DNA from: an uncultured Gammaproteobacteria bacterium
GTDB lineage: Bacteria; Patescibacteriota; Patescibacteriia; UBA9934; GWF2-40-263
DNA length: 64,000 bases
NCBI GenBank assembly: GCA_964538435.1
Contig: CAZIDX010000002.1
Location: 117,930 to 181,929, forward strand
Direction of reading: 5' to 3'
The translations under genes were made by a program, and so were the position numbers. The notes under the pieces were generated by a model. It had not been told where the DNA came from. It worked only from the letters and a program-made list of their open reading frames with translations, and did no database searches. This document shows positions 1,852 to 35,519 of this stretch, in pieces. Position 1 is the stretch's first letter. Every line of letters starts with the position of its first letter.

Positions 1852-2098
1852 TAATTTTCTCGCCAAATCTGGCCCTGTATATATGAAGTCCATTACCTGC
1901 CTAGAGTGTGAACAAACCATTCCCCCTCGTCGGCTGCGATTTCTTCGTTCACTTTGGAACCTGATCGATGACTACTATTGCGAACGATCAGACCAAGACA
2001 TCGAGGAAATTGAGGCCGCCATCAGAATCAATGGCTGTCACATCGAAACGGTTCATACCAAGAACATCTGGGAACAAGAAGCGACAAACTCCTATTGA
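1793..2098 (+). CDS. hypothetical small protein; possible TraR/DksA-like zinc finger (CLECEQTIPPRRL); likely true start at internal Met near 1883
   Basis: ORF track; CxxC-x3-IPxxRR pattern resembles TraR/DksA C4 fingers but the second Cys pair is incomplete. Confidence 0.3.
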   Translation: MISTGSVLRNSENYAFKSLNNFLAKSGPVYMKSITCLECEQTIPPRRLRFLRSLWNLIDDYYCERSDQDIEEIEAAIRINGCHIETVHTKNIWEQEATNSY

Positions 2099-2116
2099 TT
2101 TCGACAGGATTTCTCT

Positions 2117-2725
2117 ATGCCCAAACAGACCTGCGAGACACAGTATTGCCTTGATATCAGAGCCTTGAAGCAGCAGGGATTGTTGAGAAATGGGGGCAGT
2201 AGTGGTCTGTACCAATGGGGGTCTGATGGAGAGATCACGTCGAGTATCGGACTTTGGATCGATACGCAGCGTTTAAGGGTACGTCTGCGATATCGATTCA
2301 TAGATCCTTGTGGCAAAGAGTGCGAGTTGGACTATGTGGTCAGCCTCACCACCACCCCATGCTTCTTTGGTGGACGTCGCTACTGGTTCAAGTGTCCAAT
2401 AAACAAAGATGTAACAAAGTGCGATCGCCGTGTGGCCGTGCTCTACATGGGAGACAAGTACTTCGGATGTAGGAGCTGCTACGACCTGACTTATCAGAGC
2501 CAGCAGAAGACGCACACAGGCCGCTGGTCGCTCTTTGGGAGGATCATGGACCTTCAAGACGAGATAGCCAAAGGACACGATCACATCCGCATCAAGCATT
2601 GGCTCGGCCGCCCCACAAAGCGATTCCGAAAGTGGTTGGCCATGAAAAATCGTTACAACCAGCTTTCTCCCCAGCTTAGACCGATGGTGAAAGAAATGGA
2701 GCGTTGCTTGCGTGGGGAGGAGTAG
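2117..2725 (+). CDS. hypothetical Cys-rich protein (CPINKDVTKC ... CRSC) within putative integrated element
   Basis: ORF track, 202 aa, varied composition, no recognisable catalytic motif. Confidence 0.4.
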   Translation: MPKQTCETQYCLDIRALKQQGLLRNGGSSGLYQWGSDGEITSSIGLWIDTQRLRVRLRYRFIDPCGKECELDYVVSLTTTPCFFGGRRYWFKCPINKDVTKCDRRVAVLYMGDKYFGCRSCYDLTYQSQQKTHTGRWSLFGRIMDLQDEIAKGHDHIRIKHWLGRPTKRFRKWLAMKNRYNQLSPQLRPMVKEMERCLRGEE

Positions 2726-2961
2726 GTAAAATGATTGTGCTACCCAACCGTTCAACATTCAGAAGATTTTTTTACTCGTTTACTGCCCGAGATGGGCGGT
2801 CATGCCAGCAAGCGGGTATTCTTCTGAATATAGCGCGGTTGGGTAGCCATGGCCGCCCTTTTGGTTACCTAAACAGAAGACCGCACCTCGAGAGTGTTGA
2901 AGCGCAGGAAGTGCGGCTTCTGTCCGACTACCGTCGGATCTCGAAGTGCGGTTGCGTAGTG

Positions 2962-3926
2962 CTACCGCTGCTTGAGCTGCCAGCTCTTGCGGTTGCGACC
3001 GTCCGTGTCCTCCCAGACGATCTCGTCCCACTCACCAGCCTCGCCCACGTCGACCCATGCGTTGTAGTACGTCTGGCGACCACCTTCGGTGACGAAGATG
3101 AGGTTGAGGCGGAAGCGGTACTGCCAGTCGTTGGGGCGCGGCTCGACACCGACCACCACGATCACGGCATCACCACCTCGACCGCTCTGGACGTGCTCGA
3201 CCGAGTGGAGCGTGATGCTCTCCTCGACCTTGAACAGTCCCCAGAGACGATCGGGCAGCAGCGGGATCTTCTCGCCAACACGAGCCTTCTCCTGACGGTC
3301 GATCTGGTCCGCGTAGGTCTCGAAGGTCCGACGCAGGGCAGCCGTGTTGCTCAGCATCAGGTAGAGCTCTTCGAAGCTGTGCGTCATCGGGGCGATCCAC
3401 CCACGCGATCCCTTGCCGGGGCGCGGGGAGTAGACACCGAAGACGAGCTGGGAGCCCGCCGGATGCGGTGCGAGCACCTCTCCCGGCTTGGGGCCGTCGA
3501 CGCTGCGGTCCGAATCGAGGTCGCTCCGACGCCTGTTGATCCGCAGGAAGCCCCAGAAGAGGTAGGTGCGCTGTTCGAGATCGGGTTGAACGTTCCGATC
3601 AGGAGCAGGGTCGTTCCGTCCCTTGTGGAGCAGCGCTCACAGGACGACCCACGCGGGCACGAGCACAGGCTGTTGTGTCCACGCACGGTCATCCTGACCG
3701 TGTAGTTGTCCACCGTACGACCCAGATCCCATTCCTTGGCACCCGGACCACCCACGATCTCACGAGGCTTGTACAAGCCGTCGGTGATGGCAAAAGGCAT
3801 GAAGCCCTCCTTAGTTGTTGTCACCTGATCTGACGCAGGTGTCACGCCCTTATCCGCACATGAAGTAACGGACGTCTCACCGGTTGGTAAGAGAACAATA
3901 ATCTCACAAAATCGGCCTTTTGTCAA
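2962..3926 (-). pseudogene. high-GC gene of unknown function split by a frameshift near 3640 (two overlapping minus-strand ORFs 3384..3926 and 2962..3477 in adjacent frames)
   Basis: Minus-strand translation in the frame of ORF 2962..3477 stays open and protein-like upstream to a TGA at 3637-3639 (…LLHKGRNDPAPDRNVQPDLEQRTYLFWGF…). The upstream ORF 3384..3926 degenerates into S/T/R/P low complexity past about 3650. GC3 is very high. The plus ORF 2704..3705 has antisense-like L/V/R/A composition. Confidence 0.45.
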
Positions 3927-3968
3927 CCAAGCTAGGCCGGGAATTCACTAAAATTAGCTACAAATTCT

Positions 3969-5582
3969 ATGAAGAACTACGTTATCTATGCTCGTAAATC
4001 TACGGAATCAGAAGATCGGCAGGTGTTGTCGATTGATTCGCAGGTGAACGAGATGAAAGAGACCGCTAAGAAGCTGGATCTCAAGGTTGTGAAGGTTTAC
4101 AAGGAGGCAAAATCAGCCAGTAAGCTTGGAAGAGAGAAATTTGCTGAGATGATGCAGGAGGTCATGGACGGCAAGATCGATGGGATTCTTTGTTGGAAGC
4201 TCGACCGACTGGCTCGCAACCCTATCGACGGTGGCCAGGTCATCTGGGCACTCAAGGATCAGAATTTGATGATCCAAACCCCAGCACAGCTCTACAGTTC
4301 TGAGAAGGAAAACCAGATCATGCTCTACCTCGAATTCGGGATGGCGCAGAAGTACACCGATGATCTTTCCAAAAACGTGAAGCGTGGGAACATGGAGAAA
4401 GCCAATCGTGGTGGTTGGGGTGGTGTGGCTCCCATTGGGTATCTCAATAAGCTTGATGACCACACCATCATGCTGGATCCCGACCGTGCGACTCTGGTTC
4501 GTAAGGCTTGGGAAAAAGTGCTGGACGGCGCTTCACCCGAACAAGCACGTCGATATCTAAACAACGACCTCGGATTTAGAACCGTGAAACGAAAGAAGAC
4601 GGGAGGTAAGCCCCTCTCCTATAGCGGGATGTATCGCATGCTGCGTAATCCGTTTTACTATGGTTTGATCCGTCGCAGACACGACGGGGAGCTCATGGAA
4701 TATATGGGAACGCATGAACCGCTCATTACCGAGGAGGAATTCTGGCGCGTGCAAAAGATTCTTGGCGAGCCAGTTCCTCGTCCTCAGATAAAAGAATTTG
4801 CGTACACAGGCCTCATTCGTTGTCAGGAGTGCGGGTGTCACTTCACGGCGTATGAGATTAGAAAGAAATCTGGGAAGAGCTACACCTACTATCGTTGCAC
4901 TAAACGCAAAGACGGTGTTGAGTGCAGCCAGAGGCAAATCAGCAAGAAGGATCTTGAAAAGCAGATAATGCGGCTTCTGACTGAGATGACCATCCCCACA
5001 CAATTCGCTGACTGGGCAGTGCGTTGGCTTCGGTTCGTTCATGAGAATGAAACGGATAGTCAGTCGTCGCTGCGTGAATCACTTCAAACGGCTTACAACG
5101 ATACCCAGAAACAGATCGATAGGCTCACAGACATCCTGATTCGAGAGCTCATCTCTGAGAAGGAATACAAGAAGCGAAAGAGTGAGCTCATGCAGGAGCG
5201 CTCACGTGTGAGTGCAAAGCTTGCTGACCAAGAACAAGCGGCAGACAACTGGGTGGATCGAATGGAAAAGGCGTTTATGTTCGCCAAGAGTGCACGGGCC
5301 ATGTTCGCAAATGACGAGCGCGTTGAATCACGTCGACGCATTGTTCGCGCTCTAGGATCTAACTTCTCGATTTTGGACAAAAAGCTCAGCTTAGAACTTG
5401 AACCGGTGTGGTCACTCTTCGCCAAACACTCCGAACAGCTCTACAAGGATCTAACTCATGTAAACGTCGACAAAACAGGCATGATCAAAGAAAAAACCAC
5501 AGCTTCTGCTGCTGTGATTTCCTCTTGGCAGGGGCGCTGGGACTCGAACCCAGACGACAGGTTTTGGAGACCTGCATGCTAG
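3969..5582 (+). CDS. large serine recombinase (serine integrase) with resolvase-type catalytic domain, recombinase domain and Cys-rich zinc-ribbon region
   Basis: N-terminal VIYARKSTESEDRQ...SIDSQ catalytic serine motif, central recombinase domain, CQECGCHF...YYRCTKRKDGVECS zinc ribbon, C-terminal coiled-coil-like region. 3' end overlaps tRNA-Trp. Confidence 0.9.
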   Translation: MKNYVIYARKSTESEDRQVLSIDSQVNEMKETAKKLDLKVVKVYKEAKSASKLGREKFAEMMQEVMDGKIDGILCWKLDRLARNPIDGGQVIWALKDQNLMIQTPAQLYSSEKENQIMLYLEFGMAQKYTDDLSKNVKRGNMEKANRGGWGGVAPIGYLNKLDDHTIMLDPDRATLVRKAWEKVLDGASPEQARRYLNNDLGFRTVKRKKTGGKPLSYSGMYRMLRNPFYYGLIRRRHDGELMEYMGTHEPLITEEEFWRVQKILGEPVPRPQIKEFAYTGLIRCQECGCHFTAYEIRKKSGKSYTYYRCTKRKDGVECSQRQISKKDLEKQIMRLLTEMTIPTQFADWAVRWLRFVHENETDSQSSLRESLQTAYNDTQKQIDRLTDILIRELISEKEYKKRKSELMQERSRVSAKLADQEQAADNWVDRMEKAFMFAKSARAMFANDERVESRRRIVRALGSNFSILDKKLSLELEPVWSLFAKHSEQLYKDLTHVNVDKTGMIKEKTTASAAVISSWQGRWDSNPDDRFWRPAC

Positions 5583-5601
5583 CCATTGACATCACGCCCC
5601 T
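5526..5601 (-). tRNA. tRNA-Trp (anticodon CCA)
   Basis: Reverse complement reads AGGGGCG-TGA-...CAGGT-CTCCAAA-ACCTG...CTGGG-TTCGAGT-CCCAG-CGCCCCT-G-CCA. Acceptor stem 7/7 paired, anticodon loop CUCCAAA, T-loop TTCGAGT. Closely resembles canonical bacterial tRNA-Trp. Confidence 0.85.
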
Positions 5602-9956: not shown

Positions 9957-12557
9957 ATGAACGACTCACCATTCATTTTTAAACGTTATTATTTTGACCC
10001 AGCATCAGGCGAGATTCTGCTTGATTACATGCTGGGTGATATTGAATTTAAAGAAACAATCACTCTTCCAATGGATGGTGTGGACATGGACCAAATCGAT
10101 AAAGACGAACTCGACCGCGCGCTATTCGCACTCCACCTCATGACAGGAGTGAGTTACTACAAAACAACCTGCGCAAAAAAAATCAAAATCGAATCCGGCA
10201 CACTCTCAAAAACCCAAGCTGCTTTTTGGAACAAAACTTACACGCACGGACTCGGTGAATTTTTCTACACAAACCAAATCGATTTCAGGAATCTCATCGA
10301 CTTCCCTTTTTCAGATAAAACAGACAAGCTTGAACTCGCACACACAACTCGAGAACCAAACCCTCTCGTGCCAATCGGTGGTGGAAAAGATTCTGTCCTC
10401 ACAGCCGAGCTGCTCAAGAGAGCTAAAGTCCCCTTCACCACCCTTACAGTAAAAGACGCTCCCCCAATCAAAAACACAAGCGAAATCATAGGAAACGGGC
10501 GAATTGTTGTTCACCGCGCACTCTCTCCAAACCTGATTGATTTCAATACGCAAGAAGGTGTCTACAATGGCCACGTACCAATCACGGGTGTGCTTAGCTT
10601 CCTCAGCGTCGTTATTGCCATCCTACACAACAAGACAGATGCCATCTTCTCTCTCGAACAAACCGCAAGCGAAGGCAACCTCAAATACCTCGGCGAAGAA
10701 ATCAATCACCAATACAGCAAGTCGCTCGAATTCGAGCAGAGCCTGCAGTCTTATCTTTCAAGCTACGTTACAAAAAACGTATCCGTCTTCAGCTTGATCC
10801 GCCCGCTCTCAGAGTTCGACATCGTGAAGCGCTTTTCAAAACTCGAGCATTACTTCCCTGCCTTCTCAAGCTGCAACAGGAACTTTACTTTTAAAAACAC
10901 AAACAAAGATACAAAAGCATTCTGGTGTTGCGAGTGTCCAAAATGCGCATTCATGTTTGCCATGCTCTCAGCCTGGCTCACTCACGATCAGGTCGTAGAA
11001 ATCTTTAGTCAGGATCTCTTTGCAAAACCCAAACTCAAAGACCTCTTCAAAGAACTCCTCGGTATCCAGGGAAACAAACCCTTCGAGTGTGTAGGGACAG
11101 CAGAAGAAACCGCAGCTGCATTCGAGCTCGCATTCCGCCGCGGCGACGCAAACGAAACACAGATCATGAAAATGTATGAGAGTGATGTTCGAGATTCACT
11201 CACAGACCCTGATGAAATCATCTCCAAGCTACTCACCCCATCGACCGAACATGCAATTCCGCTTGAATACCAAAAGTACTCACCTGCACTGAACCCTCTC
11301 CAGCGCGTTGCTCACAGCAAGACCCTCCTGCTCGGCTTTGCTGCGACCAACCAATCACTGCTCAAAGCCATCCTCAAGGTCAATCCAGACGCAGACATTA
11401 CTATCGCAGACCAAAACCCCGACCTTGATCTACCAAACGGAGTAAATTCTCAACTCGGAGACAGCCACTTAGATAATCTCCCTAACTTTGATCTCATCAT
11501 CCGCTCACACGGTGTTCCCTACGGACCAAAACTTGAAGCCGTGCGATCTCGAGTCAAAGGTGCAGCCCAACTTTTCTTCGAGTACGTTCACAGCACATCA
11601 AACGCACGCATCATCGGAATCACAGGAACCAAGGGTAAATCCACAACCGCAACACTCATCCATATGATGTTGCAAGCTGCTGGAAAACGTACACTGTTCG
11701 TTGGAAACATCAACGCACAAGAATGGGACTGGCTCGATCAAATCACAGATGACACTTACATCGTCTACGAACTCTCCAGCTACATGCTAGAAGATTTCAC
11801 AGAAACCCCAGACGTATCCGTGTGGCTAAACGTGTACGACGATCACCTCACCTGGCACAACAACTCACCAGACGAATACACACAAGCCAAAGCAAACATC
11901 TGTGCAAACCAAAACACAACAAACACCTGCATCTTCAACGCCCATGACGCGCGCGTAGCAAACGGCACATCATCAAGCAAAGCCAAACTTATCGATTTCA
12001 CACAAAAAGAAATCGACCTGGGTGACATACAGCTTCGAGGAAATCACAACCGCGAAAACATGCTCGCAGCACTCTGCGCAATAAATGCACTGGGAATACC
12101 CGAAATAGACGTTCTACCCGCTCTAAGAGCCTTTTCAGGCCTCCCACATCGTCTTGAAACCATCGCCACAGTAAACAACGTCGACTACGTAGATGACACC
12201 CTTGCAACCAATCCAGAAGCAACCATTGCCGCAATCAAAAGCTTCGACAATATCTCCTGCCTTATCCTGGGTGGTGAAGACCGCGGTTACGACTACTCCG
12301 AGCTTGCAAAACACGTCAATGAAATCAAAAACCTCATCCTACTCCCAGGCTGCAGAGACAAACTTAAGACCACACTCACAAACTTCCCAGGAACAATCCA
12401 CGAAGTCGAGTCTGTCGAGGAAGCCGTAACCACCTCTCACAAACAAGCTGAGCCAAACACAGTCGTCCTCCTCTCCCCTGCAGCGCCAAGCTACGACCAG
12501 TTCAAGAACTACGAGAAGAAAGCAAAGGTGTTCAAACAAGCAATTACAAACCTCTAA
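9957..12557 (+). CDS. two-module protein: N-terminal PP-loop ATP pyrophosphatase-like domain with Cys cluster (QueC-like) fused to C-terminal Mur ligase family domain
   Basis: PIGGGKDS (SGGxDS-type PP-loop), FWCCECPKC Cys cluster about 190 aa later, then IIGITGTKGKSTTATLI Mur ligase P-loop, DDHLTWHNN central motif and MurD-like C-terminus. Confidence 0.6.
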   Translation: MNDSPFIFKRYYFDPASGEILLDYMLGDIEFKETITLPMDGVDMDQIDKDELDRALFALHLMTGVSYYKTTCAKKIKIESGTLSKTQAAFWNKTYTHGLGEFFYTNQIDFRNLIDFPFSDKTDKLELAHTTREPNPLVPIGGGKDSVLTAELLKRAKVPFTTLTVKDAPPIKNTSEIIGNGRIVVHRALSPNLIDFNTQEGVYNGHVPITGVLSFLSVVIAILHNKTDAIFSLEQTASEGNLKYLGEEINHQYSKSLEFEQSLQSYLSSYVTKNVSVFSLIRPLSEFDIVKRFSKLEHYFPAFSSCNRNFTFKNTNKDTKAFWCCECPKCAFMFAMLSAWLTHDQVVEIFSQDLFAKPKLKDLFKELLGIQGNKPFECVGTAEETAAAFELAFRRGDANETQIMKMYESDVRDSLTDPDEIISKLLTPSTEHAIPLEYQKYSPALNPLQRVAHSKTLLLGFAATNQSLLKAILKVNPDADITIADQNPDLDLPNGVNSQLGDSHLDNLPNFDLIIRSHGVPYGPKLEAVRSRVKGAAQLFFEYVHSTSNARIIGITGTKGKSTTATLIHMMLQAAGKRTLFVGNINAQEWDWLDQITDDTYIVYELSSYMLEDFTETPDVSVWLNVYDDHLTWHNNSPDEYTQAKANICANQNTTNTCIFNAHDARVANGTSSSKAKLIDFTQKEIDLGDIQLRGNHNRENMLAALCAINALGIPEIDVLPALRAFSGLPHRLETIATVNNVDYVDDTLATNPEATIAAIKSFDNISCLILGGEDRGYDYSELAKHVNEIKNLILLPGCRDKLKTTLTNFPGTIHEVESVEEAVTTSHKQAEPNTVVLLSPAAPSYDQFKNYEKKAKVFKQAITNL

Positions 12558-12560
12558 TAC

Positions 12561-12585
12561 AAAAACTCACCATGGTGAGTTTTTG
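12561..12585. terminator. bidirectional intrinsic terminator built on the CTCACCATGGTGAG palindrome
   Basis: AAAAA-CTCACCATGGTGAG-TTTTT immediately after the stop of CDS 9957..12557. Confidence 0.6.
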
Positions 12586-12633: not shown

Positions 12634-12667
12634 CTGACATTTCCTCACCATGGTGAGAAAATGTCAG
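12634..12667. repeat. 34-bp palindromic element CTGACATTTCCTCACCATGGTGAGAAAATGTCAG (family member 1 of 3-4)
   Basis: Near-perfect inverted repeat centred on CCATGG; related copies at 52472-52505 and 53045-53067 and core copy at 12566-12579. Confidence 0.6.
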
Positions 12668-13826: not shown

Positions 13827-14429
13827 ATGAACCGTCAGACGTTCTTTTACTCCCTTCCTCTGGAGCAATACAGCCCAGAGGACCTACGCCGCATCCAGCT
13901 TGCCTACTGGCTTGCAAAGGAAGGCCACCGCACACAGCACCGCGACGATGGTGAGCGCTACTTCGAGCATCCTCGAGCTGTTGCCCTGATCCTCGTCGAG
14001 ATGGGCTACACGGACGTGAGCACCATCTGCGCCGCGCTCCTGCACGACGGCGTCGAGGACACGTACATCCTTCCCGATGCCTACCTGGCGCTGGTTGGAC
14101 CCACGGTCTGGAACTGGGTCTTCACCCTTTCCAAGAAGATCCCCGCCTTTGACCCTGTCACTGGCGTGGTGATCGACTACGTCAAGCGCGACCAGGACAA
14201 GTACTTCGAGGGTATTGCCGCTCTCCCACCCCAGGCGCGTGTGATCAAGCTTGCTGATCGCCTTCACAACCTTCGCACCTGCGGAGTCATGAAGGAAGAC
14301 AGGAAGCAGCGCTACATCCACGAGACCCGGAGTCTCATCCTCCCGATCGCCCAGAGCACAGACCCGAACTTCGTCCAGGTGATCGAACACGAGATCAAGC
14401 TTGTCCTCGCCACCTGCAAGGACGACTAG
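13827..14429 (+). CDS. HD-domain hydrolase of RelA/SpoT type (small alarmone hydrolase-like)
   Basis: HRDDGERYFEHPRAVALIL...AALLHDGVEDT...IKLADRLHNLRT matches the (p)ppGpp hydrolase HD domain signature. Confidence 0.75.
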   Translation: MNRQTFFYSLPLEQYSPEDLRRIQLAYWLAKEGHRTQHRDDGERYFEHPRAVALILVEMGYTDVSTICAALLHDGVEDTYILPDAYLALVGPTVWNWVFTLSKKIPAFDPVTGVVIDYVKRDQDKYFEGIAALPPQARVIKLADRLHNLRTCGVMKEDRKQRYIHETRSLILPIAQSTDPNFVQVIEHEIKLVLATCKDD

Positions 14430-16282: not shown

Positions 16283-17119
16283 TTGCCAAAACTGAGTATT
16301 TCAGCTATATTCTGTTGTTCAAAACACACTATGACATTTCAAACACGAATCCTGTTCGAACATCTTCTCAAATACATCCTGATCTTCATTGTGATGGGGA
16401 TCGTTTGGATTCCAGTGCAAACAGGACTCACCAACGCTGTAGAATCAGGTAAACTTGAAGCGATCGCTGTCATCATGGGTATTGTGGCCCTATGTAGCCT
16501 TACGGGATACTACACCTTTTCCTACACAGTCGTAGCCAAGACTTGGCGACAGCGCTACTTCGGATATCTCTGCACACTCCTGATGGGAATCTCACTTTCA
16601 ATCTCACTGCTCATCATCTACGTTATTGCTTCACTCTGGGTACCTGAAATGAAAGTTGTGTGGATGGGAACACTCGGATCGCTCTACATCGGAACGATCA
16701 TCTACGACAACTTTGACCTGCTCCGCATGGAGAAGGATGTCGCAGCCATCAACTTCTACGAAACCAACGTAAACATCGATGACGACCACATCCTAGACAC
16801 AACCGTCGACTACCTCCGAGAAGGACAACACCTACGTTTCTCAAACTCCCTGATCGGAAAAGCCATCATGGACCTGGGGCGAGAAAGAAAACTCATGGAA
16901 CTTGTTGAGGGAGGAAAATGGATCTACGAAAACGCAGACGAAGAGCAACACACCATCGACCACAAAATCATCGACCTCTTCAAACCATTCAAACAACACA
17001 GAACATCAATCGCAAACATCCTCACACAACTAGAAGAACACCAATCACAACACGTAGCCGACCAACTCATCGCCCAGCTCCTAACAGAAATAGACGACCA
17101 CTTCGACAACAACAAGTAA
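16283..17119 (+). CDS. membrane protein (about 4 TM) with soluble C-terminal domain; true start possibly ATG 16331
   Basis: ORF track; hydrophobic helices in N-terminal half. Confidence 0.5.
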   Translation: MPKLSISAIFCCSKHTMTFQTRILFEHLLKYILIFIVMGIVWIPVQTGLTNAVESGKLEAIAVIMGIVALCSLTGYYTFSYTVVAKTWRQRYFGYLCTLLMGISLSISLLIIYVIASLWVPEMKVVWMGTLGSLYIGTIIYDNFDLLRMEKDVAAINFYETNVNIDDDHILDTTVDYLREGQHLRFSNSLIGKAIMDLGRERKLMELVEGGKWIYENADEEQHTIDHKIIDLFKPFKQHRTSIANILTQLEEHQSQHVADQLIAQLLTEIDDHFDNNK

Positions 17120-17147
17120 AAAAACTAGCCGCAAGGCTAGTTTTTTA
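17119..17147. terminator. bidirectional intrinsic terminator
   Basis: AAAAAA-ctagcc-gcaa-ggctag-TTTTTT right after stop codon. Confidence 0.6.
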
Positions 17148-17431
17148 GTTCACCCCTCCTGGAGAGGCCGACGTGAGGCACTCGACGTGCCGACACGTCG
17201 CAGCCCCCACCACCCCACCCATAGGTCCAGGACGCCAAACGGCCGTTCGGGGTAGTGGTTTAAAAACATTTACAACGAGTTTTTAAACCACTACCCCGTG
17301 GCCGCCCAAAACTCCCGCAGCAAGATTCGAGCAAGGTTCGAGCAAAGGCGCAACCAATTAAAGGAGAGGAAGGGAAGGAAAAAAGGTATTAGAAAAGCCC
17401 TCGACCGAAGTCAAAGGCTCGTTAGCATGAC

Positions 17432-19516
17432 CTAGAAACCCGGCCACACCTTGCGAAGCGCCTCCCTCGTTGCATGACCCATCTTCAGGCCCCGCGCAGT
17501 CTCCTTGTCGTACCAGCTTGCCGAAGCAATCTCCACCAGATCCACATCCGCCTCGTACTCGATCAGCACGCGAACCAGGATGTTGGTCACCACGTACGCA
17601 CGCTCCTCACCACCGGGCTTGACCCAGCCAGTGTAGTGCACGCTCACGTTCTCCGGAGCAGGCTCGGGCAGACCCGTCAGGTCCACACCAATCTCCTCAC
17701 CAGCCTCGCGGATCCCCGCACAGAGAGCATCGTGATCTTCAGGATCGATGATGCCACCCACATGCGCGAAGTAGCCCGGATAGGACGTGTCTTCCCCACG
17801 CTCGACCAGCAGCACCCGATCCGTGATCGGATTGTGCAACGTCAGCGTGGCAGCCCTGCGCAGATTCTTGTGGATCGACGGCGGCTCCAGAATCCAGACC
17901 CCTTCGTTCTCGATCCGCTGGACCGTACGGAAGCCTCGAGCCTGGTAGAACTCAGCCACTTCGCAGTTGTCATGTGCAGCCACGAGCACGCCTCGCTGGT
18001 TGATCTGATCCACCAGCTGCTGACCCAGACCCATGCCACGAGCCTCACCGTTGAGGTAGAACGAGTGCCACCCCTCCTCGGTCCTGGCCACCACACCAGC
18101 AATCACATCGCCGGCAAAGATGAGGCTCAGACTCACGCGCCGAGCAAAGTCCGGCCGACCGATCTGCTTCAGGTGGAACAGGTACTCGGACGCAGCTACA
18201 TCCCATTCCTTGCGGATCTGGTTCACAGCATTGAGGTCTCGAAGGTACAGCACATGTCCGTGATTGGTCATCTCGAGCATGAGTGTGTCGCTATCGAGCC
18301 ATGCATCCGAGACATTCGAATTGCATGCCAGTGCCTCGAGAACACTCATGGCCTGCTCGAGCGTACCACACGGGTACGAGAGCCGGGTCTTGGCCATGTT
18401 CTCACCAACCACCCATCCATCATGGAAGTGCAGGCTGGCCGCATGTGCGAACGCTCTGTGGACATGCAGATGCACAGACGAATCGATGCTGGGCTTCTGA
18501 CCCTTCGAGCCCGAGAAGAGCACTTCACGCTTGTCAGGATTCCCGAGCCGCACCGAGATCAGATCGTCCAACTCAAGCTTGCTCTTGTCTGTGGCCCGAG
18601 GGTTCACCAGAAGACTTCCGTCCCCTGGAGCCACTGCCACATTTCCAGACGTATCGCAGAGCAACCCCGCATCCTGAGCAAACTCGATGAGGTCACGCAC
18701 AAGCTGCGCACGTATAGGGCTCGCTTCTGCAAAAACGATCTCAGGAGAACCATCCACTACCTGCACACTCCTGTGCCAGTGGGTCGCGCGGTAGCGAGCC
18801 ATGATCTCCACGATCTGACGCGCCACATCATCGCTGTGTCCCTCGATGCGCACCACGCCACCATCCGGTGTCACCCACCAGATGGGATGCTGTCCGCCAC
18901 CGATCTCCTCGGCCAGGTTCGCAATCGTGCCATTGAGCCGCGCTCGCTTGTTCTGCTTGCGCGCAGCAGCGATCACATCCTGCAGGCTCGAGTTCTTCTG
19001 ACTCAGCAGCTTGAACCCCACGATCAGGCACTCGATCCCGAACTTCTCCCGCCAGGTGTCGAGCACCTTGGGAAGCTTGGGAATGCGCAGCACGAGCTCA
19101 TCACTGCTCGAGGAGATCTTCCCCTCGATCGGATTGAGAAACCCGAAGTCACTGACCGCAGCCGCGCTCATGGCGTATCCCGGCTGACCGTAGGTCTGGA
19201 CTGCCTCGTCAATGGCCTCCAGATACTCCTTGAACGTGCTGAACACGATCACCTTGGCACCCTTGGGAAGATTCGACCGATGCTTGTAAAAAGCGAACTC
19301 GCTGAGAACGAGCACCACCGGAATCCCGCGGCGGGCGAAGTGATGTGCGAACGTCACTGCAAAGCCACCCTTTGCCTTGTTGGCCATGGAACGCATGGCA
19401 TCGACTTGCGCCATGGTTCCACCACCCGTGATCAGGGCGTATGGAGCTTGAAAGGACATGTCTTGACCTCCAGTTGCCAGTGAATCTGGCAAGGCCAGAT
19501 CATAGCAGAATTCCAA
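17432..19516 (-). CDS. 694-aa four-domain fusion: CoaB-like (phosphopantothenate-cysteine ligase family) / class II aldolase-adducin-like / GNAT acetyltransferase / Nudix hydrolase
   Basis: ITGGGTMAQVDAMRSMANKAKGGFA (CoaB signature); SGNVAV...HLHVHRAFAHAASLHFHDG...LEMTNHGHVL (class II aldolase); GMGLGQQLV...AEFYQARGF (GNAT); GGIIDPEDHDALCAGIREAGEEIGV (Nudix box). GC3 very high; the plus-strand ORF 17474..19483 is antisense-like. Confidence 0.75.
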   Translation of the reverse strand: MEFCYDLALPDSLATGGQDMSFQAPYALITGGGTMAQVDAMRSMANKAKGGFAVTFAHHFARRGIPVVLVLSEFAFYKHRSNLPKGAKVIVFSTFKEYLEAIDEAVQTYGQPGYAMSAAAVSDFGFLNPIEGKISSSSDELVLRIPKLPKVLDTWREKFGIECLIVGFKLLSQKNSSLQDVIAAARKQNKRARLNGTIANLAEEIGGGQHPIWWVTPDGGVVRIEGHSDDVARQIVEIMARYRATHWHRSVQVVDGSPEIVFAEASPIRAQLVRDLIEFAQDAGLLCDTSGNVAVAPGDGSLLVNPRATDKSKLELDDLISVRLGNPDKREVLFSGSKGQKPSIDSSVHLHVHRAFAHAASLHFHDGWVVGENMAKTRLSYPCGTLEQAMSVLEALACNSNVSDAWLDSDTLMLEMTNHGHVLYLRDLNAVNQIRKEWDVAASEYLFHLKQIGRPDFARRVSLSLIFAGDVIAGVVARTEEGWHSFYLNGEARGMGLGQQLVDQINQRGVLVAAHDNCEVAEFYQARGFRTVQRIENEGVWILEPPSIHKNLRRAATLTLHNPITDRVLLVERGEDTSYPGYFAHVGGIIDPEDHDALCAGIREAGEEIGVDLTGLPEPAPENVSVHYTGWVKPGGEERAYVVTNILVRVLIEYEADVDLVEIASASWYDKETARGLKMGHATREALRKVWPGF

Positions 19517-19660
19517 GAAAAGTCAATGTTTCCAAGGGTTTTCTTCCAAACCCAGGGTGTCCACATTGACAAATACCCCACAAAAGCGTAGAATCCGCAT
19601 CGTGTCTAAAGGAAAGAGGGGCCTGACACCACTACATTTTCCCTTGGAGAAACCTAGCGG

Positions 19661-20308
19661 ATGAACGAAGGAAACCTGCTCACCATGTGCCACGGAGACA
19701 TCGGTGTGGGACAAGTAACCACCTCGACAGCACAGACCGAAGACCAGACCGAAACCGAGCTGAGCCAATGGCCACATAGCGCCACGCTCACCCCATGGAT
19801 CATCCCCATGGGCACAGAGCGCCCGATCCCCTGGAAGGAACCGGCCACGCACATCTCCAGACTGATCCGCCCCACGGACACCGTGGCCCTGATCAGCTTC
19901 CGTGATCCCACGGATTGGGAAGGCATCGCGCTTCGCATGCTCGAAGCCGAGAACCAGAGCGTGAGCATCATGATCATCGCTCCGGACGGAACCGATCCTC
20001 GCGTGCTCGGCACCCTGATCTCGAACGCCGGCGACCACGCTTCCATGCACGGTCGTATCCAGCACGAGCGCGAAAAGGTCGTGTTCGAAGCCTCGGATCA
20101 CCTCATGCGCATCCTGGGTATCGATCTGCGCAAGGCTGTGCGCAACTCCATCACCCTGATCCACCAAGGCCGTGTCAAGGCTTCCTGGATCTCCATGAGC
20201 CGCGAAGGCTCAGGACCGCACGACTGGTCCGGAACCCAGCGCACCCTCGAGCTCTTTGCCGAAGAAGAGCCCACGGACGTCTACGAAGAGCTCGAACTCG
20301 AAGAGTAA
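19661..20308 (+). CDS. hypothetical protein (GC-rich island), acidic C-terminus
   Basis: High GC3 in plus frame, varied composition; overlapping minus ORFs are G/A/R/V-rich antisense artefacts. Confidence 0.5.
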   Translation: MNEGNLLTMCHGDIGVGQVTTSTAQTEDQTETELSQWPHSATLTPWIIPMGTERPIPWKEPATHISRLIRPTDTVALISFRDPTDWEGIALRMLEAENQSVSIMIIAPDGTDPRVLGTLISNAGDHASMHGRIQHEREKVVFEASDHLMRILGIDLRKAVRNSITLIHQGRVKASWISMSREGSGPHDWSGTQRTLELFAEEEPTDVYEELELEE

Positions 20309-20431
20309 CCCTCCTCGACCAAGCTCACTGCAACCGATCTTGCCCCGCAAGGTCGGTTTTCTCATTCCGACGAATCTCTAACACCTCACTACCTCCACCC
20401 AGAGGCCGGTTGCACACCAATTAAGGCGAGT

Positions 20432-20517
20432 GGTGCTGTGTGGGTATTTCACGAGGTGGTGGTCGTCTATACTGTGAGACGGCCCGGCTCCGCCGAGTGA
20501 AATACCCACACAGCACC
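20432..20517. repeat. 21-bp perfect inverted repeat (GGTGCTGTGTGGGTATTTCAC ... GTGAAATACCCACACAGCACC) with 44-nt spacer at right border of GC-rich island
   Basis: Read directly; both arms exact reverse complements. Confidence 0.6.
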
Positions 20518-20540
20518 ACGAGCCGATTCATAACAAATCA

Positions 20541-20855: not shown

Positions 20856-20885
20856 GCCGTTGTAGCTCAGTCGGTAGAGCGCATC
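20856..20885 (+). other. 30-nt duplicate of the 5' end of tRNA-Thr(GGU)
   Basis: GCCGTTGTAGCTCAGTCGGTAGAGCGCATC identical to 21182-21211; followed by GC-rich hairpins, not by the rest of a tRNA. Confidence 0.7.
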
Positions 20886-20939
20886 TCCCGCCGTTGGCGG
20901 GACCCCGCCTCGTAATATGGCGGGGCATGGTAATGTAAT

Positions 20940-21182
20940 ATGCATTTCGTATACATTCTCTACAGTGAATCTCATAATCGTTATTACATCGGCTCTACAT
21001 CAGATATAGACAAACGTCTTGTTGCTCACAATTCTGGAAAAACCCGATCAACAAAACCTTTTAGGCCTTGGAGGATAGTTTATTCCAAAACACTAGAAAC
21101 GAACACTGAGGCAAGAAAAAGAGAAAACCAAATCAAAAGATACAAAGGAGGAGAAGCTTTCAAAAAACTCATAAACAACTAG
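20940..21182 (+). CDS. small GIY-YIG nuclease family protein (YhbQ/UPF0213-like)
   Basis: YILYSESHNRYYIGSTSDIDKRLVAHNSG (GIY...YIG...R...H/N), ...RENQIKRYK; stop codon overlaps first nucleotide of the tRNA. Confidence 0.8.
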   Translation: MHFVYILYSESHNRYYIGSTSDIDKRLVAHNSGKTRSTKPFRPWRIVYSKTLETNTEARKRENQIKRYKGGEAFKKLINN

Positions 21183-21257
21183 CCGTTGTAGCTCAGTCGG
21201 TAGAGCGCATCCATGGTAAGGATGAGGTCACCGGTTCAATCCCGGTCAACGGCTCCA
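21182..21257 (+). tRNA. tRNA-Thr (anticodon GGT)
   Basis: GCCGTTG acceptor, GCTC-AGTCGGTA-GAGC D arm, CATCC-ATGGTAA-GGATG anticodon arm, ACCGG-TTCAATC-CCGGT T arm, CAACGGC-T-CCA. Confidence 0.85.
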
Positions 21258-23419: not shown

Positions 23420-23538
23420 GGCCGGTATCTCCTTGCCTTTCGGGAGATGACGAACTACTTAGATAGGCAAAGGGCACGCAACCACCCTAAATCAGGAAGC
23501 ATCCAGCGACGACCTCACCAACGCAATGAGTGAGGTAT

Positions 23539-23662
23539 CCGTCCAAGACGCATAAGCACCCGCTTGTGCCCCTCGGACGGAATATCTCCGTTCGACTTCC
23601 CCGCCCTCTGCCCTGTGAGAAGGTGCAAGGCGCTGGCCCCTACGGGTCGAAAGGCAGCTGCT
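23539..23662 (+). promoter_or_regulatory. structured leader RNA element, copy 2 of 4
   Basis: See copy 1; pre-RBS hairpin ggccc-ctac-gggtc. Confidence 0.5.
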
Positions 23663-23992
23663 ATGAAGCGCGCCCTGATCACCGCCACCAACATCTGGAA
23701 CACCCTGCCATGGTGGATCCAGACACCAGTCATGATCTTCACTATTTACTTCTTGGTCTGCCTGTTCTTGGGACAGATCGGAGTATTCGTGAATGCAAGC
23801 GTCCGAAGCTCCTTCGGGGGAGATTTCTCCCTCATGGACTTTCTGAACTCAGAAGCCACCGCCGTGTTCTACGCAGGCGTGTTGTCCATGGGATGCACCA
23901 TCCTCATGGGCGCTCACGAAATCTTGATGAACTTCGCACGCTACCGCGCGTTCATGAAAGTTTTCGTGGGTCTCGAAGACGAGAACGAATAG
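23663..23992 (+). CDS. small hydrophobic protein (about 110 aa); track ORF 23564 starts inside the leader
   Basis: ATG 23663 after GAAAGG; hydrophobic helices. Confidence 0.5.
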   Translation: MKRALITATNIWNTLPWWIQTPVMIFTIYFLVCLFLGQIGVFVNASVRSSFGGDFSLMDFLNSEATAVFYAGVLSMGCTILMGAHEILMNFARYRAFMKVFVGLEDENE

Positions 23993-24024
23993 ACCCACTG
24001 CCCCGCTACTACGTAACCGGGGCT

Positions 24025-24150
24025 CCGTCCAAAGCGCACAAGCAAATGCTTGTGCCCCTCGGACGGAATATCTCCGTTCGACTTCCCCGCCCTCTGCCCT
24101 GTGAGAAGGTGCAAGGCGCTCGTCCCGTGTGGACGAAAGGCTGACGTGTC
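24025..24150 (+). promoter_or_regulatory. structured leader RNA element, copy 3 of 4
   Basis: Nearly identical to copy 2 over the core; pre-RBS hairpin cgtcc-cgtgt-ggacg (compensatory change). Confidence 0.5.
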
Positions 24151-24426
24151 ATGACCTGGTTCCAGAAATTCAAAATCTTCGCGTGGAAAACATTTTGGAT
24201 TGGCTTCCTGTCTATGAACATGCTATTCGCAAGTTTGGGAGCATTCTTCTGCGTGGACATCTTGGAGTTTGAGCTCATGCTCATCTCCTCCGTCGTCATT
24301 GGCGCCATGATCTTCGGATCACTTGCAGCCACCTTCCCAAAGATCGGGGAGGAGATCTTCTACCTCAAGGAAGAAGACGGAAAGATGGTGGATGCCTACC
24401 CACCCGCAGAAAGCAAGGAACAGTAG
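24151..24426 (+). CDS. small hydrophobic protein (91 aa)
   Basis: ORF track. Confidence 0.5.
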   Translation: MTWFQKFKIFAWKTFWIGFLSMNMLFASLGAFFCVDILEFELMLISSVVIGAMIFGSLAATFPKIGEEIFYLKEEDGKMVDAYPPAESKEQ

Positions 24427-24492
24427 CAAGGATCAGTTGCTTCTCCTCAAGAAAGCAACACCACGACTAGCCTCACCAACGCATGTGAGGCT

Positions 24493-24534
24493 CCGTCCAA
24501 AGCGCATAAGCACCCGCTTGTGCCCCTCGGACGG
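24493..24534 (+). promoter_or_regulatory. structured leader RNA element, copy 4 (5' module only), followed directly by a terminator and no ORF
   Basis: Identical to 5' module of copy 2. Confidence 0.45.
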
Positions 24535-24540
24535 ATCATC

Positions 24541-32318: not shown

Positions 32319-32745
32319 CTCATGGAGGAGAGAGAAAACCGTCCGAGGAACTTCTTTATGAAGAACCTTGGCGGCGATCACTGAATGGTTCCACTCGGTT
32401 TAACCCGCTTGCGGGTCCTAGCTGACTGAATCCATACGCCAAGTGATCACGAATGATACTCGAGCTTGCTCAAGTCACTCATTCACCCCTACCCCTCCAG
32501 GAGACTGCATATAACTTCCAACCGGGAAATTCGGAGGAGAGAGAAAACCCGTTCGATTGATCTCAACAGAGTGACATCGACGGTGAACATCAAATGGTTC
32601 GACTCGGCACGTCTGACTCGATCCATACTACCGATGTTCAAGATGTACACCAGCCCTCGGGCAGGTCACTACAATTTTCTTCTCCGGTTTCCCCGGCCGG
32701 ACCTGATCAGTCCATTCCAAGCCGAGGGGTGCACCCAAACCGTTC
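32319..32745 (+). repeat. tandem duplication of a ~214-nt structured unit (starts 32319 and 32533), each beginning GGAGGAGAGAGAAAACC and containing AAUGGUUCSACUCGG and GAWYCCAUAC blocks
   Basis: Blocks align at constant spacing between the two units. Confidence 0.5.
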
Positions 32746-32760
32746 GAGGAGGACTCCACA

Positions 32761-33029
32761 TGAACACCCGCACCGCCACCACGACCGCCATCTCCGCCAC
32801 CTCCGTGACCATGAGCGACTGGCTCGCCGGTGACGTCGAAGATTTCAGCCTCATCGAGGCCGACATCGACGACATCGACACCGACGACTTCCACGCCACG
32901 ACCCTGGAGGAGAGCGTCGAGATCATCGCGGCCCTGGGCACCATCGCCCTGACCGCGGTGCTGATCGCCAGCACCTTCCCCAACATCACCGAGGCCGTCA
33001 CCGGCGGCCTGAGCTTCATCCTCTTCTAG
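32761..33029 (+). CDS. small protein (89 aa), acidic N-terminal half and hydrophobic C-terminal half
   Basis: ATG 32761 after GGAGGA; high GC3. Confidence 0.4.
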
Positions 33030-33474
33030 AGGGAAGCTCGCCTGCTACTAGGTGCAGGCAACGGGGGCGACGCTAACGCAATTGCGTCGCCTATCCCAAT
33101 GAGAACTGGATCCATGCTTCCAGTGCTCATCAGGATACCGATCCTTACAAAGAATGATCTCCGCGACGCACGATTGAATCTCGATCCTGCATCGCGGAAA
33201 TCATCAAAGCAAATATCCAATCAGATCAAAAAGACTGCACACCTAAACACTGTTAACAAGAAACCTAATAGCGAAAGCGAACTGGAATCAAGTTAATAAG
33301 AATAGGCAGAGAAGTGAAGGGGGTGAAAAGGAGCTTCGGCTCCCAACCACAACCAGATCATCTCGCGTGCACCTTTCTGAACTGGATGGAGGAAGCTGAA
33401 GCTGATGGGCGTGGTGCCCACCCCGCAACAGTAGAGTAGGGCACCAGCCCAAAACAAACAGGCTGCCCAAAACA

Positions 33475-35148
33475 GTGGGTAGCACAGCGCACTGGAGTAC
33501 ACCCATGACCACCTCCCCCGCCAACCTGACCTCCCCCGTCTGCACCGACGCCCAGGGCCGCGACTGGACCTCCGACGAGGCCAAGGCCCGCCGCGCCATG
33601 AAGGCCTGGGCGCGTCTCAACGGTCGCCGCCAGGAAGAGCCGAAGATTCGCGAGCTCCAGGCGTCCGAGGGCGGTCTGGGCTGGCACACCATCGGCGACG
33701 AGAACTGCTTCGACCTCGAGATCGACATGAACGACCGCGGCTGGTTCGAGATCGACCAGTTCGCCACCGACGAGGTCGTGTCCAACCTGATGGGCGTCGA
33801 GACCAGCACCAACATCGACCTGGCCACCGCCCTGACCGACGAGATCGTCCGCGACGAGGCCTGCCTCGACGCGATCCGCGTGCTCATCGACACCGTGGGC
33901 TACGCCCAGGCCATGTCCAAGCTCGAGGAGATCATCACGATCACCAAGGGCGAGGACGAGGACGGCCCCTACGTCGACATCGACATGGGTGACTTCCCGG
34001 CCATGGTCGAGGCATACCGCACGGTCGCGACCGACCCCCTGGTCACCCAGTGCGACATCCCGATCTGCTGGCTCGTCGGCTTCAACGGCGCTCCTCTGGG
34101 CGTCAACGGCCTGGCCACCATCGAGCAGGCCATCGACAACGCCGAAGAGCTCGACATCGACTGGCGCCTCTGGATCGAGGGCGACGAGGACGAGCAGTGC
34201 ACCGCCATGCACGTCGTCACCGAGCTCGCGTCCCGGCTGCAGGGCAAGGTCAAGCGCGTCCGCGCCCAGGCCGAGCGCGCCGAGCGTCAGGCCAAGGCCC
34301 AGCGCAAGGCCGCCGAGCGCGCCGAGCGTCAGGCCAAGGCCCAGCGCAAGGCCGCCGAGCGCGAGACCACCCAGAAGGTCGAGACCCCCAAGGTCGAGAC
34401 CGACTGGATGGGTCGCGTCCAGGGCCCCAGCGGCGAAGCCATGTTCCAGTGCACCGGCCGCCGGTACGTCCCGCCCGCCACCAACGACCAGAGCCCGTTC
34501 GGCGCCCAGGGCCCGACCGAGGGCACGCACGAGCTGTGCCAGGTCAAGGGCTCGGCCGACTACATGTACGTCGGCTCCCTGGACTCCATGTGGCGGCGTC
34601 AGAACCGCAACGTGGTCGAGGTCTGGCACCTGGCCAACCATGCGCTCTGCCCGAGCTGCATGGAGCGGATCTCCCGGTCCGTGGCCCGGAAGAACGGTGG
34701 CAACCGCCCGTTCTTCCAGACCGTCAGCGAGGCGATCGACCTCATCGAGGCCGAGGAGCGCAAGCTCGAGAACAACAACACGTTCTTGCGCACGCCCGGC
34801 ATGGACTCGTCCATGCGCGCCTCCCGGTTCGCCGTCAAGGTGGACTGGGCCGCAGACGACGCGTGGAAGACCCTGGCCAATCGCGCACCGAACCTGTCCG
34901 GCGCCCAGTGGGCGGCCCTGCGCCACTCGCTCCAGCTGGGCACCCTGGACCTGACGGTGCTCACGCGCCAGATCGTCCCAGGCTGGGAAGTCGACGGCGA
35001 CGCAGGCTACATCGGCTACTGGCTGATCTGCAAGCTCGAGCGCGACCAGGTCGCGTGGCAGAACCGCCAGCGCGAGCGCAGCGCCCGCAAGAACGCGCGC
35101 AACCGCCACGGCCGCGGCCAGTCGCACGAAGCGCCCTGGATGCGCTAG
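33475..35148 (+). CDS. hypothetical protein, very G+C-rich, with internal coiled-coil tandem repeat and Cys pairs
   Basis: Plus frame has high GC3 and protein-like composition; the longer minus ORF 33358..35397 is L/A/G/R/V-rich antisense. Confidence 0.6.
   Translation: MGSTAHWSTPMTTSPANLTSPVCTDAQGRDWTSDEAKARRAMKAWARLNGRRQEEPKIRELQASEGGLGWHTIGDENCFDLEIDMNDRGWFEIDQFATDEVVSNLMGVETSTNIDLATALTDEIVRDEACLDAIRVLIDTVGYAQAMSKLEEIITITKGEDEDGPYVDIDMGDFPAMVEAYRTVATDPLVTQCDIPICWLVGFNGAPLGVNGLATIEQAIDNAEELDIDWRLWIEGDEDEQCTAMHVVTELASRLQGKVKRVRAQAERAERQAKAQRKAAERAERQAKAQRKAAERETTQKVETPKVETDWMGRVQGPSGEAMFQCTGRRYVPPATNDQSPFGAQGPTEGTHELCQVKGSADYMYVGSLDSMWRRQNRNVVEVWHLANHALCPSCMERISRSVARKNGGNRPFFQTVSEAIDLIEAEERKLENNNTFLRTPGMDSSMRASRFAVKVDWAADDAWKTLANRAPNLSGAQWAALRHSLQLGTLDLTVLTRQIVPGWEVDGDAGYIGYWLICKLERDQVAWQNRQRERSARKNARNRHGRGQSHEAPWMR
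34279..34362 (+). repeat. perfect 42-bp tandem repeat x2 inside CDS (encodes AERQAKAQRKAAER twice)
   Basis: gccgagcgtcaggccaaggcccagcgcaaggccgccgagcgc repeated exactly. Confidence 0.7.
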
Positions 35149-35519
35149 TGCGACCGCAGGCATGAGGCTCCCTGCATGAAAAGAAGCCCAAAGGGTACTC
35201 CTAAACCCTCCACCTGCTTGAAGGTGGTTAATCCGAGAGGATGGAGTTGAGCAGCCGCAAGCTTCTCGTAAAACCGAAACCGCCCCTGTACGCAACAGGG
35301 AGGACGGGCCGATCGCGTAAAAAACGATCGGCCATCCCTCAGAGAGGTTTAGACTCATGAAACAGTCTAGAAACCTCTGACCGGATAACCAGAACAACCA
35401 AGTCCGATTTTGTCACGGACTTTAGACCTACCAAACAAAAACCCATCCACCGACAAGGTGGAGATCAGTCTGGCCTTTAGCAAGCCAGAACGACAAACTG
35501 ATCAGATCCTTGAAGGAGG

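Follow-up and report, generated by a model that had tools for sequence, protein, structure and literature searches.

In most bacteria the ligase CoaB is part of the bifunctional protein CoaBC (Dfp), where it is likewise fused to a second enzyme, an N-terminal flavoprotein decarboxylase of the same pathway. Streptococcus and Enterococcus carry a type III monofunctional CoaB (PDB 2gk4; TIGR02114). To our knowledge, phosphopantothenoylcysteine synthetase is the sole activity of the CoaB fold. A comparable design is NadM-Nudix (nicotinamide mononucleotide adenylyltransferase/ADP-ribose pyrophosphatase, PDB 2qjt), a cofactor-pathway enzyme with a C-terminal Nudix domain. Here we analyze a minus-strand gene in a 64,000-nt stretch of contig CAZIDX010000002.1 (the window), from a genome that is probably a Candidatus Uhrbacteria of the candidate phyla radiation (CPR). 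Its product, called the fusion below, joins a CoaB-type ligase domain to a class II aldolase-like domain, a GNAT domain and a Nudix domain.

An initial annotation of this DNA had read the same four signatures in the same order. Pfam, PDB profile searches and AlphaFold/Foldseek bear them out, and the motifs concerned (ITGGGT, NKAKGG, SGNVAV, HFH, NHGH, RGMGLG and REAGEE) are all found in the protein. Our best explanation, held with moderate confidence from alignments and predicted structures, is that this is a resident gene encoding one polypeptide with four folded, apparently active modules in a fixed order. These would be a CoaB-type nucleotide-dependent carboxylate-amine ligase, an AraD/FucA-fold divalent-metal enzyme, a minimal GNAT and a Nudix pyrophosphohydrolase.

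The ligase domain is the most readily recognized. Pfam places its DFP/CoaB model, which describes the C-terminal domain of CoaBC (DNA/pantothenate metabolism flavoprotein) only, at residues 27-204 of the 694-aa open reading frame (ORF) (E 1.5e-21). The domain carries the motifs TGGGT, D20, R23, N27, AAVSDF, GK114ISS, VGFK150 and N176..AN181. Across 44 aligned sequences, N27, D104 and K114 are conserved at 90% or more. N27 and K114 are the equivalents of the conserved Asn and Lys of CoaBC, which we take to be N210 and K289 in E. coli CoaB numbering. Searched against the PDB, the family profile matches Streptococcus pneumoniae CoaB (2gk4) best (E 5.6e-49), with E. coli and M. smegmatis CoaB at E 1e-26 to 1e-31. 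Foldseek matches the domain to 2gk4, 1u7z and 6th2 with target template modeling (TM) scores of 0.75-0.82. The best match, 2gk4, is a genuine coaB_strep equivalog (397 bits, NCBIfam). It has the same fold as the ligase domain of the fusion and holds in common with it T-G-G-T, D-x-V-R-x-x-x-N, AAVSDY, (G/A)KISS, GFKLL and ..AND. However, the two are only ~23% identical, and the fusion scores far under the equivalog cut-off. Unlike the monofunctional enzyme, the fusion ligase is joined to three more domains, and no CoaC partner was seen. Whereas the partner in CoaBC is the N-terminal decarboxylase, here it is a C-terminal class II aldolase fold.

This second domain is recognized by Pfam Aldolase_II at residues 281-375 of the 694-aa ORF (E 1.7e-9). 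Its invariant residues are GN273, R288, K292, KPSID326, H344xH346, YPC364G and H400G. The candidate metal ligands D326, H344, H346 and H400 are invariant in the 44 sequences. A single-sequence PDB search of the region gave spurious major-sperm-protein matches only, and a profile was required. With the profile, the domain aligns best with L-ribulose-5-phosphate 4-epimerase AraD, pairing KPSID with AraD KKPSSD and HxH with AraD HTH. H400 is a putative ligand from its position and its HG motif. The domain was also modeled separately (predicted local distance difference test, pLDDT, 89.8). Foldseek matched this model to whole chains of FucA, YgbL, AraD, TqaM, NovR and pyruvic-oxime dioxygenase (POD), covering ~205-210 columns against FucA chains of 203-206 aa (E ~1e-7, TM 0.55-0.6). 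From the model and the alignment, we regard the predicted fold and metal site as secure.

The likeness to AraD and FucA, of the class II aldolase/adducin superfamily, extends to the whole-domain fold, the Asp/His/His/His ligands and the GN motif. It is limited by TM scores of just ~0.55-0.6 and by the replacement of two serines of the phosphate pocket. In the sugar-phosphate pocket N273 and S324 are retained, while R288 replaces AraD Ser44 and I325 replaces Ser75. K292 and K322 are extra invariant residues, and K292 and YPC364G are family-specific invariants, unlike in AraD/FucA. Decarboxylases and non-haem-iron oxygenases of the superfamily (YgbL, TqaM, NovR, POD) match the domain about equally well. 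Its chemistry could be that of an aldolase, an epimerase, a decarboxylase or an oxygenase.

The GNAT assignment is weak but consistent. Pfam Acetyltransf_7 covers residues 471-530 of the 694-aa ORF (E 3.3e-5). In the whole protein its score of 24.6 falls short of the cut-off of 27, which the domain cut out alone just passes (27.9). The same model matches 11 of 15 family members. PDB profile matches to the region are nearly all GNATs, the best being PseH (E 1.9e-4). Motif A reads R474GMGLG, with G479 invariant; H429 and G455 are also invariant and C499 nearly so. In the AlphaFold2 model, the predicted pattern b-b-b-a-b-a-b-b fits the GNAT core.

The C-terminal Nudix domain scores above its gathering cut-off (Pfam NUDIX, residues 553-676 of the 694-aa ORF, E 2.5e-7; 31.2 against 21.1). 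Foldseek matches it to small viral MutT-like proteins (TM up to 0.77), and the PDB profile matches agree. Its Nudix box had been called canonical. REx2EE is indeed present and the Nudix fold is confirmed, but the box, G-x5-E-x9-REAGEEIGV, has a two-residue insertion compared with the consensus G-x5-E-x7-R-E-U-x-E-E-x-G-U. REx2EE is invariant among the relatives, and the exact canonical box occurs in 24 of 51. Because the catalytic helix is intact, we read the window sequence as a spacing variant. NadM-Nudix (2qjt) is among the PDB matches of this domain. It has a different synthetic domain and belongs to another pathway, so the likeness is one of design only. Elsewhere the window has a stand-alone 237-aa Nudix gene (44109-44822; Pfam E 2.8e-21) adjoining a glycosyltransferase cluster.

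An AlphaFold2 prediction of the full chain on the alignment of 44 homologues reached a pLDDT of 93.7 and a predicted TM score of 0.89. These values suggest a compact particle rather than beads on a string. In the same alignment, all four domains contain invariant or near-invariant residues. Identity to close homologues is 45-73% within the domains compared with 0-22% in the linker between the first two. Purifying selection therefore appears to act on every domain, with the linker free to vary.

The architecture is widespread. A word-index search returned 44 relatives, of which ~30 have the four domains in the same order; the few with names are Candidatus Uhrbacteria and one Myxococcota metagenome-assembled genome. 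A profile search of 1.84 billion representatives returned at least 150 clusters at 50% identity (E < 1e-78). The identical order occurs in dozens of other lineages. All 184 retrieved proteins were parsed with domain hidden Markov models built from the alignment. The full CoaB-Ald-GNAT-Nudix order was found in 68, so the four-domain order read in the window does exist elsewhere. CoaB-Ald-GNAT accounted for 40, CoaB-GNAT-Nudix for 34, CoaB-Nudix for 32 and CoaB-Ald for 4, and other orders or fragments made up the last 6. The aldolase-like domain is fused to the CoaB-like ligase in 114 of the 184. Where an aldolase-like or GNAT domain is not detectable, the middle region is a degenerate remnant. 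Judged by these parses, the CoaB-like domain is the common anchor of the family.

A two-domain relative of 370 aa, CoaB-aldolase-like, is encoded by a 485-kb uncultured phage (LR745208.1; L015, 3980-5092). It aligns with the family at an hhalign probability of 99.6% over 351 columns (E 1.3e-24). Its first metal ligand is altered, KASLN replacing KPSID, and it lacks both GNAT and Nudix; the gene overlaps the start of the next ORF. A genome scan with the alignment of homologues gave four loci only. The larger relatives checked held no additional informative fused domain, and a cluster look-up gave no useful names. The family is large and uncharacterized, and in the fusion known folds are combined into a new variant.

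The coordinates of the gene and of its surroundings are given in Table 1. The fusion had been described as a single ORF of 694 aa. That ORF exists, but the true start is likely the ATG that gives 675 aa. This start is indicated by GGAGG 7 nt upstream, by a -35/-10 match that falls within the TTG extension of the 694-aa ORF, and by homologues, which share a start at the equivalent position in the alignment. A database protein (P0001) is 675 aa long and 100% identical to the window fusion. We read a 669-aa plus-strand ORF as an antisense shadow of the GC-rich fusion gene.

Table 1. Coordinates in the window of the fusion gene, its domains and the flanking features. L002 is GCA_900089805.1 (FLOH01); L003 is Candidatus Uhrbacteria BH28.
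Feature	Position	Strand	Remarks
Left-border hairpin	17227..17322	+	Perfect 20-bp stem at 17248-17298
Terminator-like hairpin	17390..17419	-	GCCTTTGACTTCGGTCGAGGGC + TTTTCT, directly past the fusion stop codon; from sequence reading and fold
Mechanical ORF of the fusion	17432..19516	-	694 aa from TTG 19516
Coding sequence, four-domain protein (likely)	17432..19459	-	675 aa from ATG 19459; stop TAG 17432-17434
Nudix hydrolase domain	17435..17863	-	Residues ~533-675; box GGIIDPEDHDALCAGIREAGEEIGV
Helical linker and minimal GNAT domain	17876..18235	-	Residues ~409-528
Class II aldolase/adducin-fold metal domain	18236..18727	-	Residues ~245-408
CoaB/DFP-type Rossmann ligase domain	18764..19447	-	Residues ~5-232
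Fusion ribosome-binding site	19471..19467	-	GGAGG
Fusion promoter-like site	19526..19499	-	TTGACT-16-TATGAT
215-aa gene, promoter-like site	19566..19594		
215-aa gene	19661..20308	+	Divergent from the fusion; in L002 and L003, conserved beside it or close by
215-aa gene, terminator-like site	20332..20358		
Right-hand hairpin element	20425..20524	+	100 nt; 23-bp basal stem and invariant apical core

Synteny and codon composition bear on how long the gene has been in place. L002 has, in this order, peptidase U32, radical SAM, a MurL-like ligase, a 315-aa gene, a protein kinase, a membrane protein, the fusion and the 215-aa gene. This matches the window from 7.6 to 20.3 kb, with protein identities of 48-90% (62% for the fusion). 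L003 keeps the wider order, with M16 peptidase, TIM and TPR, then the 215-aa gene and then the fusion; TPR, TIM, the 215-aa gene and the fusion were matched by tblastn. The locus is thus present and syntenic in both related genomes. Other Uhrbacteria have a second arrangement, in which the fusion lies between rpoBC-EamA and YebC-RuvC. It is full in L005 and L018, and L017 has the fusion with the YebC-RuvC side.

The fusion and its 215-aa neighbor had been noted as more GC-rich than the flanking genes, and they are. The fusion has 59.1% GC and a third-position GC content (GC3) of 0.71, and the 215-aa ORF has 60.8% and 0.76. The flanking kinase and membrane gene have 46.3% and 45.8% GC, and the median ORF of the window has 47% and a GC3 of 0.48. 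The same excess is found in L002 and L003. Fusion GC3 is 0.716 in the window, 0.703 in L002 and 0.818 in L003, and that of the 215-aa gene is 0.764, 0.759 and 0.897. For comparison, kinase GC3 is 0.406 in the window and 0.366 in L002, and neighboring genes generally range from 0.37 to 0.61. The orthologues of the two genes share only 48-62% protein identity, yet their GC3 is near-identical, and third-position G-C skew is almost equal between them. Over host genomes of 47-64% GC the fusion gene has ~59-72%. It is close to native GC (62-68%) in the GC-rich Uhrbacteria of 61-64%, and in distant relatives its GC is not elevated.

The same chromosomal place in two relatives and a gene-specific GC3 kept in diverged orthologues indicate that the fusion is a long-resident, vertically inherited chromosomal gene and not a recent island. 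Its high GC belongs to the gene itself and is conserved, and does not betray a recent import. Conservation as a housekeeping gene with native GC had been named as the outcome that would remove the accessory interpretation. The fusion is conserved across the lineage, but its GC is not native in low-GC genomes; the high GC is instead conserved by gene. Candidate origins of this bias are a slow decay from GC-rich ancestry, repeated exchange between Uhrbacteria, or biased gene conversion. That gene-specific GC3 holds steady in orthologues only 50-62% identical warns against inferring islands from base composition alone, and it poses a small puzzle of genome evolution.

Other features of this neighborhood were recorded. 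The 278-aa membrane protein (16283-17119) is ~90% identical to its L002 orthologue, with genes on both sides at ~61-62%; it is either unusually constrained or recently exchanged. The 866-aa protein at 9957-12557 has Mur ligase middle and C-terminal domains. Its L002 orthologue, 76% identical, has MurL_N and MurL_epimerase_C matches, and for that reason we assign the window protein as a MurL-like epimerase/Mur ligase fusion. The locus is one of several GC-rich patches. About 8-10 ORFs across the window are GC-rich (54-69% GC depending on which ORF is chosen, with GC3 reaching 0.79), among them 2704-3705, 13827-14429, 32466-36280, 54002-54481 and 60392-60805, where surrounding genes have 45-48% GC. 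Most have no Pfam domain, and one is an HD_4 protein. Third-position strand skew is ~+/-0.5 in native genes and slight in the GC-rich ORFs.

We propose that the protein acts stepwise on a single small molecule that would bear a carboxylate group and, probably, a phosphate group. Activation of the carboxylate as an acyl-cytidine monophosphate, followed by its coupling to an amine, would be the work of the ligase. The metal domain, with its extra invariant Arg and Lys, would then act on the same anionic molecule and alter the substrate or product. The GNAT module would bind (acyl-)CoA, for acetylation or for CoA sensing, and the Nudix module would cleave a diphosphate. As to the substrate, we tentatively suggest CoA- or 4'-phosphopantothenate-related chemistry, in salvage or remodeling, in an organism expected to scavenge cofactors. 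This guess is made because no CoaB motif is missing from the ligase and its nearest match is a true CoaB, because GNATs bind CoA, and because CoA diphosphatases are Nudix enzymes. Weak matches to Nudix CoA diphosphatases were seen in NCBIfam and in the PDB profile search. The initial annotation had also raised the CoA pathway, and this is still the most economical lead.

Several observations weigh against this explanation of the protein and its substrate. An NCBIfam scan gave the same domain picture as Pfam, but all matches were far under the equivalog cut-offs: 81.6 against 219.7 for TIGR00521 (coaBC_dfp), 50.5 against 217.2 for TIGR02114 and 58.5 against 265 for NF005231. No CoA-pathway gene was found in the 10 homologue contexts examined or among the ~47 ORFs scanned in the window. 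Judged by eye, the Nudix domain does not have the NuCoA signature. We know of no role of GNAT or class II aldolase folds in CoA synthesis. The aldolase-like region is undetectable in 66 of the 184 relatives, and in 32 of those so is the GNAT region, so the four activities are not an obligate set. A literature search for the architecture found no paper and no characterized member. For the residence of the gene, the GC3 excess and weak strand skew could also be compatible with an old transfer.

A more specific version of the CoA proposal, which we consider improbable, is that the aldolase-fold domain is a flavin-independent replacement of CoaC. The protein would then convert 4'-phosphopantothenate and cysteine, or a close analogue, to 4'-phosphopantetheine or to a new pantetheine-like thiol, and GNAT and Nudix would link it to the sensing or breakdown of CoA. 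The case is circumstantial. The domain occupies the expected place of CoaB's partner, its superfamily holds decarboxylases and oxidative decarboxylases, and the domain itself combines an invariant Cys with a complete metal site.

The main rival explanation, which we judge unlikely but worth keeping in view, is an enzyme of a nucleotide-sugar or cell-envelope sugar-acid pathway. The GNAT would N-acetylate an amino sugar, the Nudix module would free the amino sugar from its nucleotide, the aldolase fold would make or epimerize a phospho-ketose, and the CoaB-like ligase would amidate a sugar-acid carboxylate. The best PDB match of the GNAT, PseH, is a nucleotide-sugar N-acetyltransferase, and in sequence the aldolase-like domain comes nearest to AraD, an epimerase of sugar phosphates. 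However, such matches are weak and generic, as the PseH E-value illustrates, and the aldolase fold has a changed phosphate pocket, with Arg288 and Ile325 where AraD has serines. Nudix enzymes that hydrolyze nucleoside diphosphate sugars are known, but we know of no CoaB-type ligase that acts on sugars. One three-domain member (L011) adjoins PGI, G6PD/6PGD and a TrmB sugar regulator, and glycosyltransferases are common in these genomes; across the 10 contexts, no glycan gene is a consistent neighbor.

The gene and its neighbor could instead be a recently acquired genomic island, a foreign fusion and neighboring gene brought in by a mobile element with the hairpins as its ends. This is close to the accessory island of the initial annotation, and we consider it very improbable and largely refuted. 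The two genes do lie 12-14 GC points over the local median, and their GC3 strand skew (+0.13 and -0.30) is weaker than the ~+/-0.5 of native genes. Un-ameliorated foreign DNA, however, would not be expected to keep near-identical GC3 and skew at the 48-62% identity seen here, and in L002 and L003 both genes are found at this very place, diverged as orthologues typically are. They have no integrase or transposase next to them, the nearest recombinase being ~12 kb off, and no flanking direct repeats were detected. Structured hairpins do stand at both borders, and an independent assembly broke at both (L001, corresponding to window 17352-20473), but elsewhere the hairpin family follows EF-Ts, SOD and MetK-like genes.

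The hairpins themselves differ from what had been described. The 21-bp inverted repeat at 20432-20517 is real but is part of a larger element with 35-nt arms (20425-20459 and 20490-20524) and a fold energy of -74.8 kcal/mol (z = -10.45). Its apical core, GAGGTGGTGGTCGTCTA-N8/9-GACGRCCCGGCTCCGCC, is invariant, whereas basal stems vary yet always pair. The L002 copy has five compensatory stem changes around the core. A metagenome scan for the exact core found at least six further copies (L019-L024), all in the L002 assembly FLOH01. Across the hairpin copies, 11 of 37 pairs have a compensatory change. The copies in the L002 assembly are intergenic and follow unrelated genes (EF-Ts, SOD, MetK-like and others) in both orientations; GC-rich DNA abuts just three of the six. 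We therefore reject the hairpins as cassette borders and read the right-hand one as a dispersed element, similar to repetitive extragenic palindromic sequences, rather than an island end. A covariance model scan of the window gave no more copies. At the left border, a repeated ~100-nt element had been reported at 17146-17260, but no repeat was detected there; the region holds nested hairpins, including the perfect stem of Table 1. The left hairpin's flanks resemble the right-hairpin family (flank motif GACGCCAAACGGCCGTTC at 17231), but the apical core is absent. No Rfam family matches either border element.

The 215-aa gene is real, since its homologues in L002 (48% identity, E ~1e-56, tblastn) and L003 (30%) outscore the antisense frame. 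A 214-aa minus-strand ORF was considered as the real upstream gene, but both the GC pattern over its codon positions and its weaker score across genomes identify it as an antisense shadow of the 215-aa gene. The 200-bp region between the fusion and the 215-aa gene contains back-to-back promoter-like sites. The protein had been said to have no recognizable motif, and no match was found in Pfam, NCBIfam, PADLOC, PHROG or PDB. The word index holds two homologues only.

A phage counter-defense or signaling-nucleotide-degrading protein, also suggested earlier, is highly implausible. Nudix and GNAT domains occur in some counter-defense proteins, and the 485-kb phage carries the two-domain relative, but that relative has no GNAT and no Nudix. 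Housekeeping genes surround the fusion in every context examined. PADLOC and plasmid matches are absent, so that a defense or plasmid origin is not supported, and PHROG matches are generic only (one Nudix family and one aldolase-region family of unknown function). The chance of a mis-assembled chimera or run-through of separate genes, for which the GC jump at both borders and the short independent contig might speak, is negligible: the uninterrupted architecture occurs in 68 proteins of many independent assemblies, which rules this artefact out, the left junction is reproduced in L002, and the predicted structure is compact and of high confidence.

Other parts of the window contain probable mobile elements or repeated sequences. 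A second copy of the first 30 nt of tRNA-Thr(GGT) lies at 20856-20885, and an 80-aa GIY-YIG nuclease ORF (20940-21182) abuts the intact tRNA-Thr at 21182. This stretch (20856-21257) resembles a small mobile insertion by which the tRNA was restored. At 3969-5582 a large serine recombinase (Resolvase, Recombinase and Zn-ribbon domains) overlaps the end of tRNA-Trp (5526-5601, minus strand), and upstream of it are a Toprim protein (73-1851) and an ORF of 61% GC; window 73-5601 is probably an integrated element. The region 33358-36280 has 63-70% GC, and each strand carries long ORFs there (one of 679 aa on the minus strand), with no Pfam match and a 42-nt periodic repeat at 34263-34368. A 34-nt palindrome, CTGACATTTCCTCACCATGGTGAGAAAATGTCAG, with center CCATGG, occurs at 12634-12667 and 52472-52505, with partial copies at 12555-12579 and 53042-53081, and is a possible operator or repeat element. 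At 23535-24540 there are three direct copies of a 52-118-nt unit, spaced by 486 and 468 nt and partly within a 204-aa ORF.

CPR bacteria are generally assumed to obtain cofactors from partners. Here a lineage of this kind keeps a large, conserved enzyme built around a CoA-type ligase, and identifying its substrate would fill a gap in CPR metabolism. The four related architectures and the phage version are natural material for dissecting the family. The fusion may represent a new use of the CoaB fold. Interest would be higher still if the family makes a new cofactor-like molecule, or if the aldolase fold replaces CoaC, which would be a non-orthologous route in CPR cofactor metabolism.

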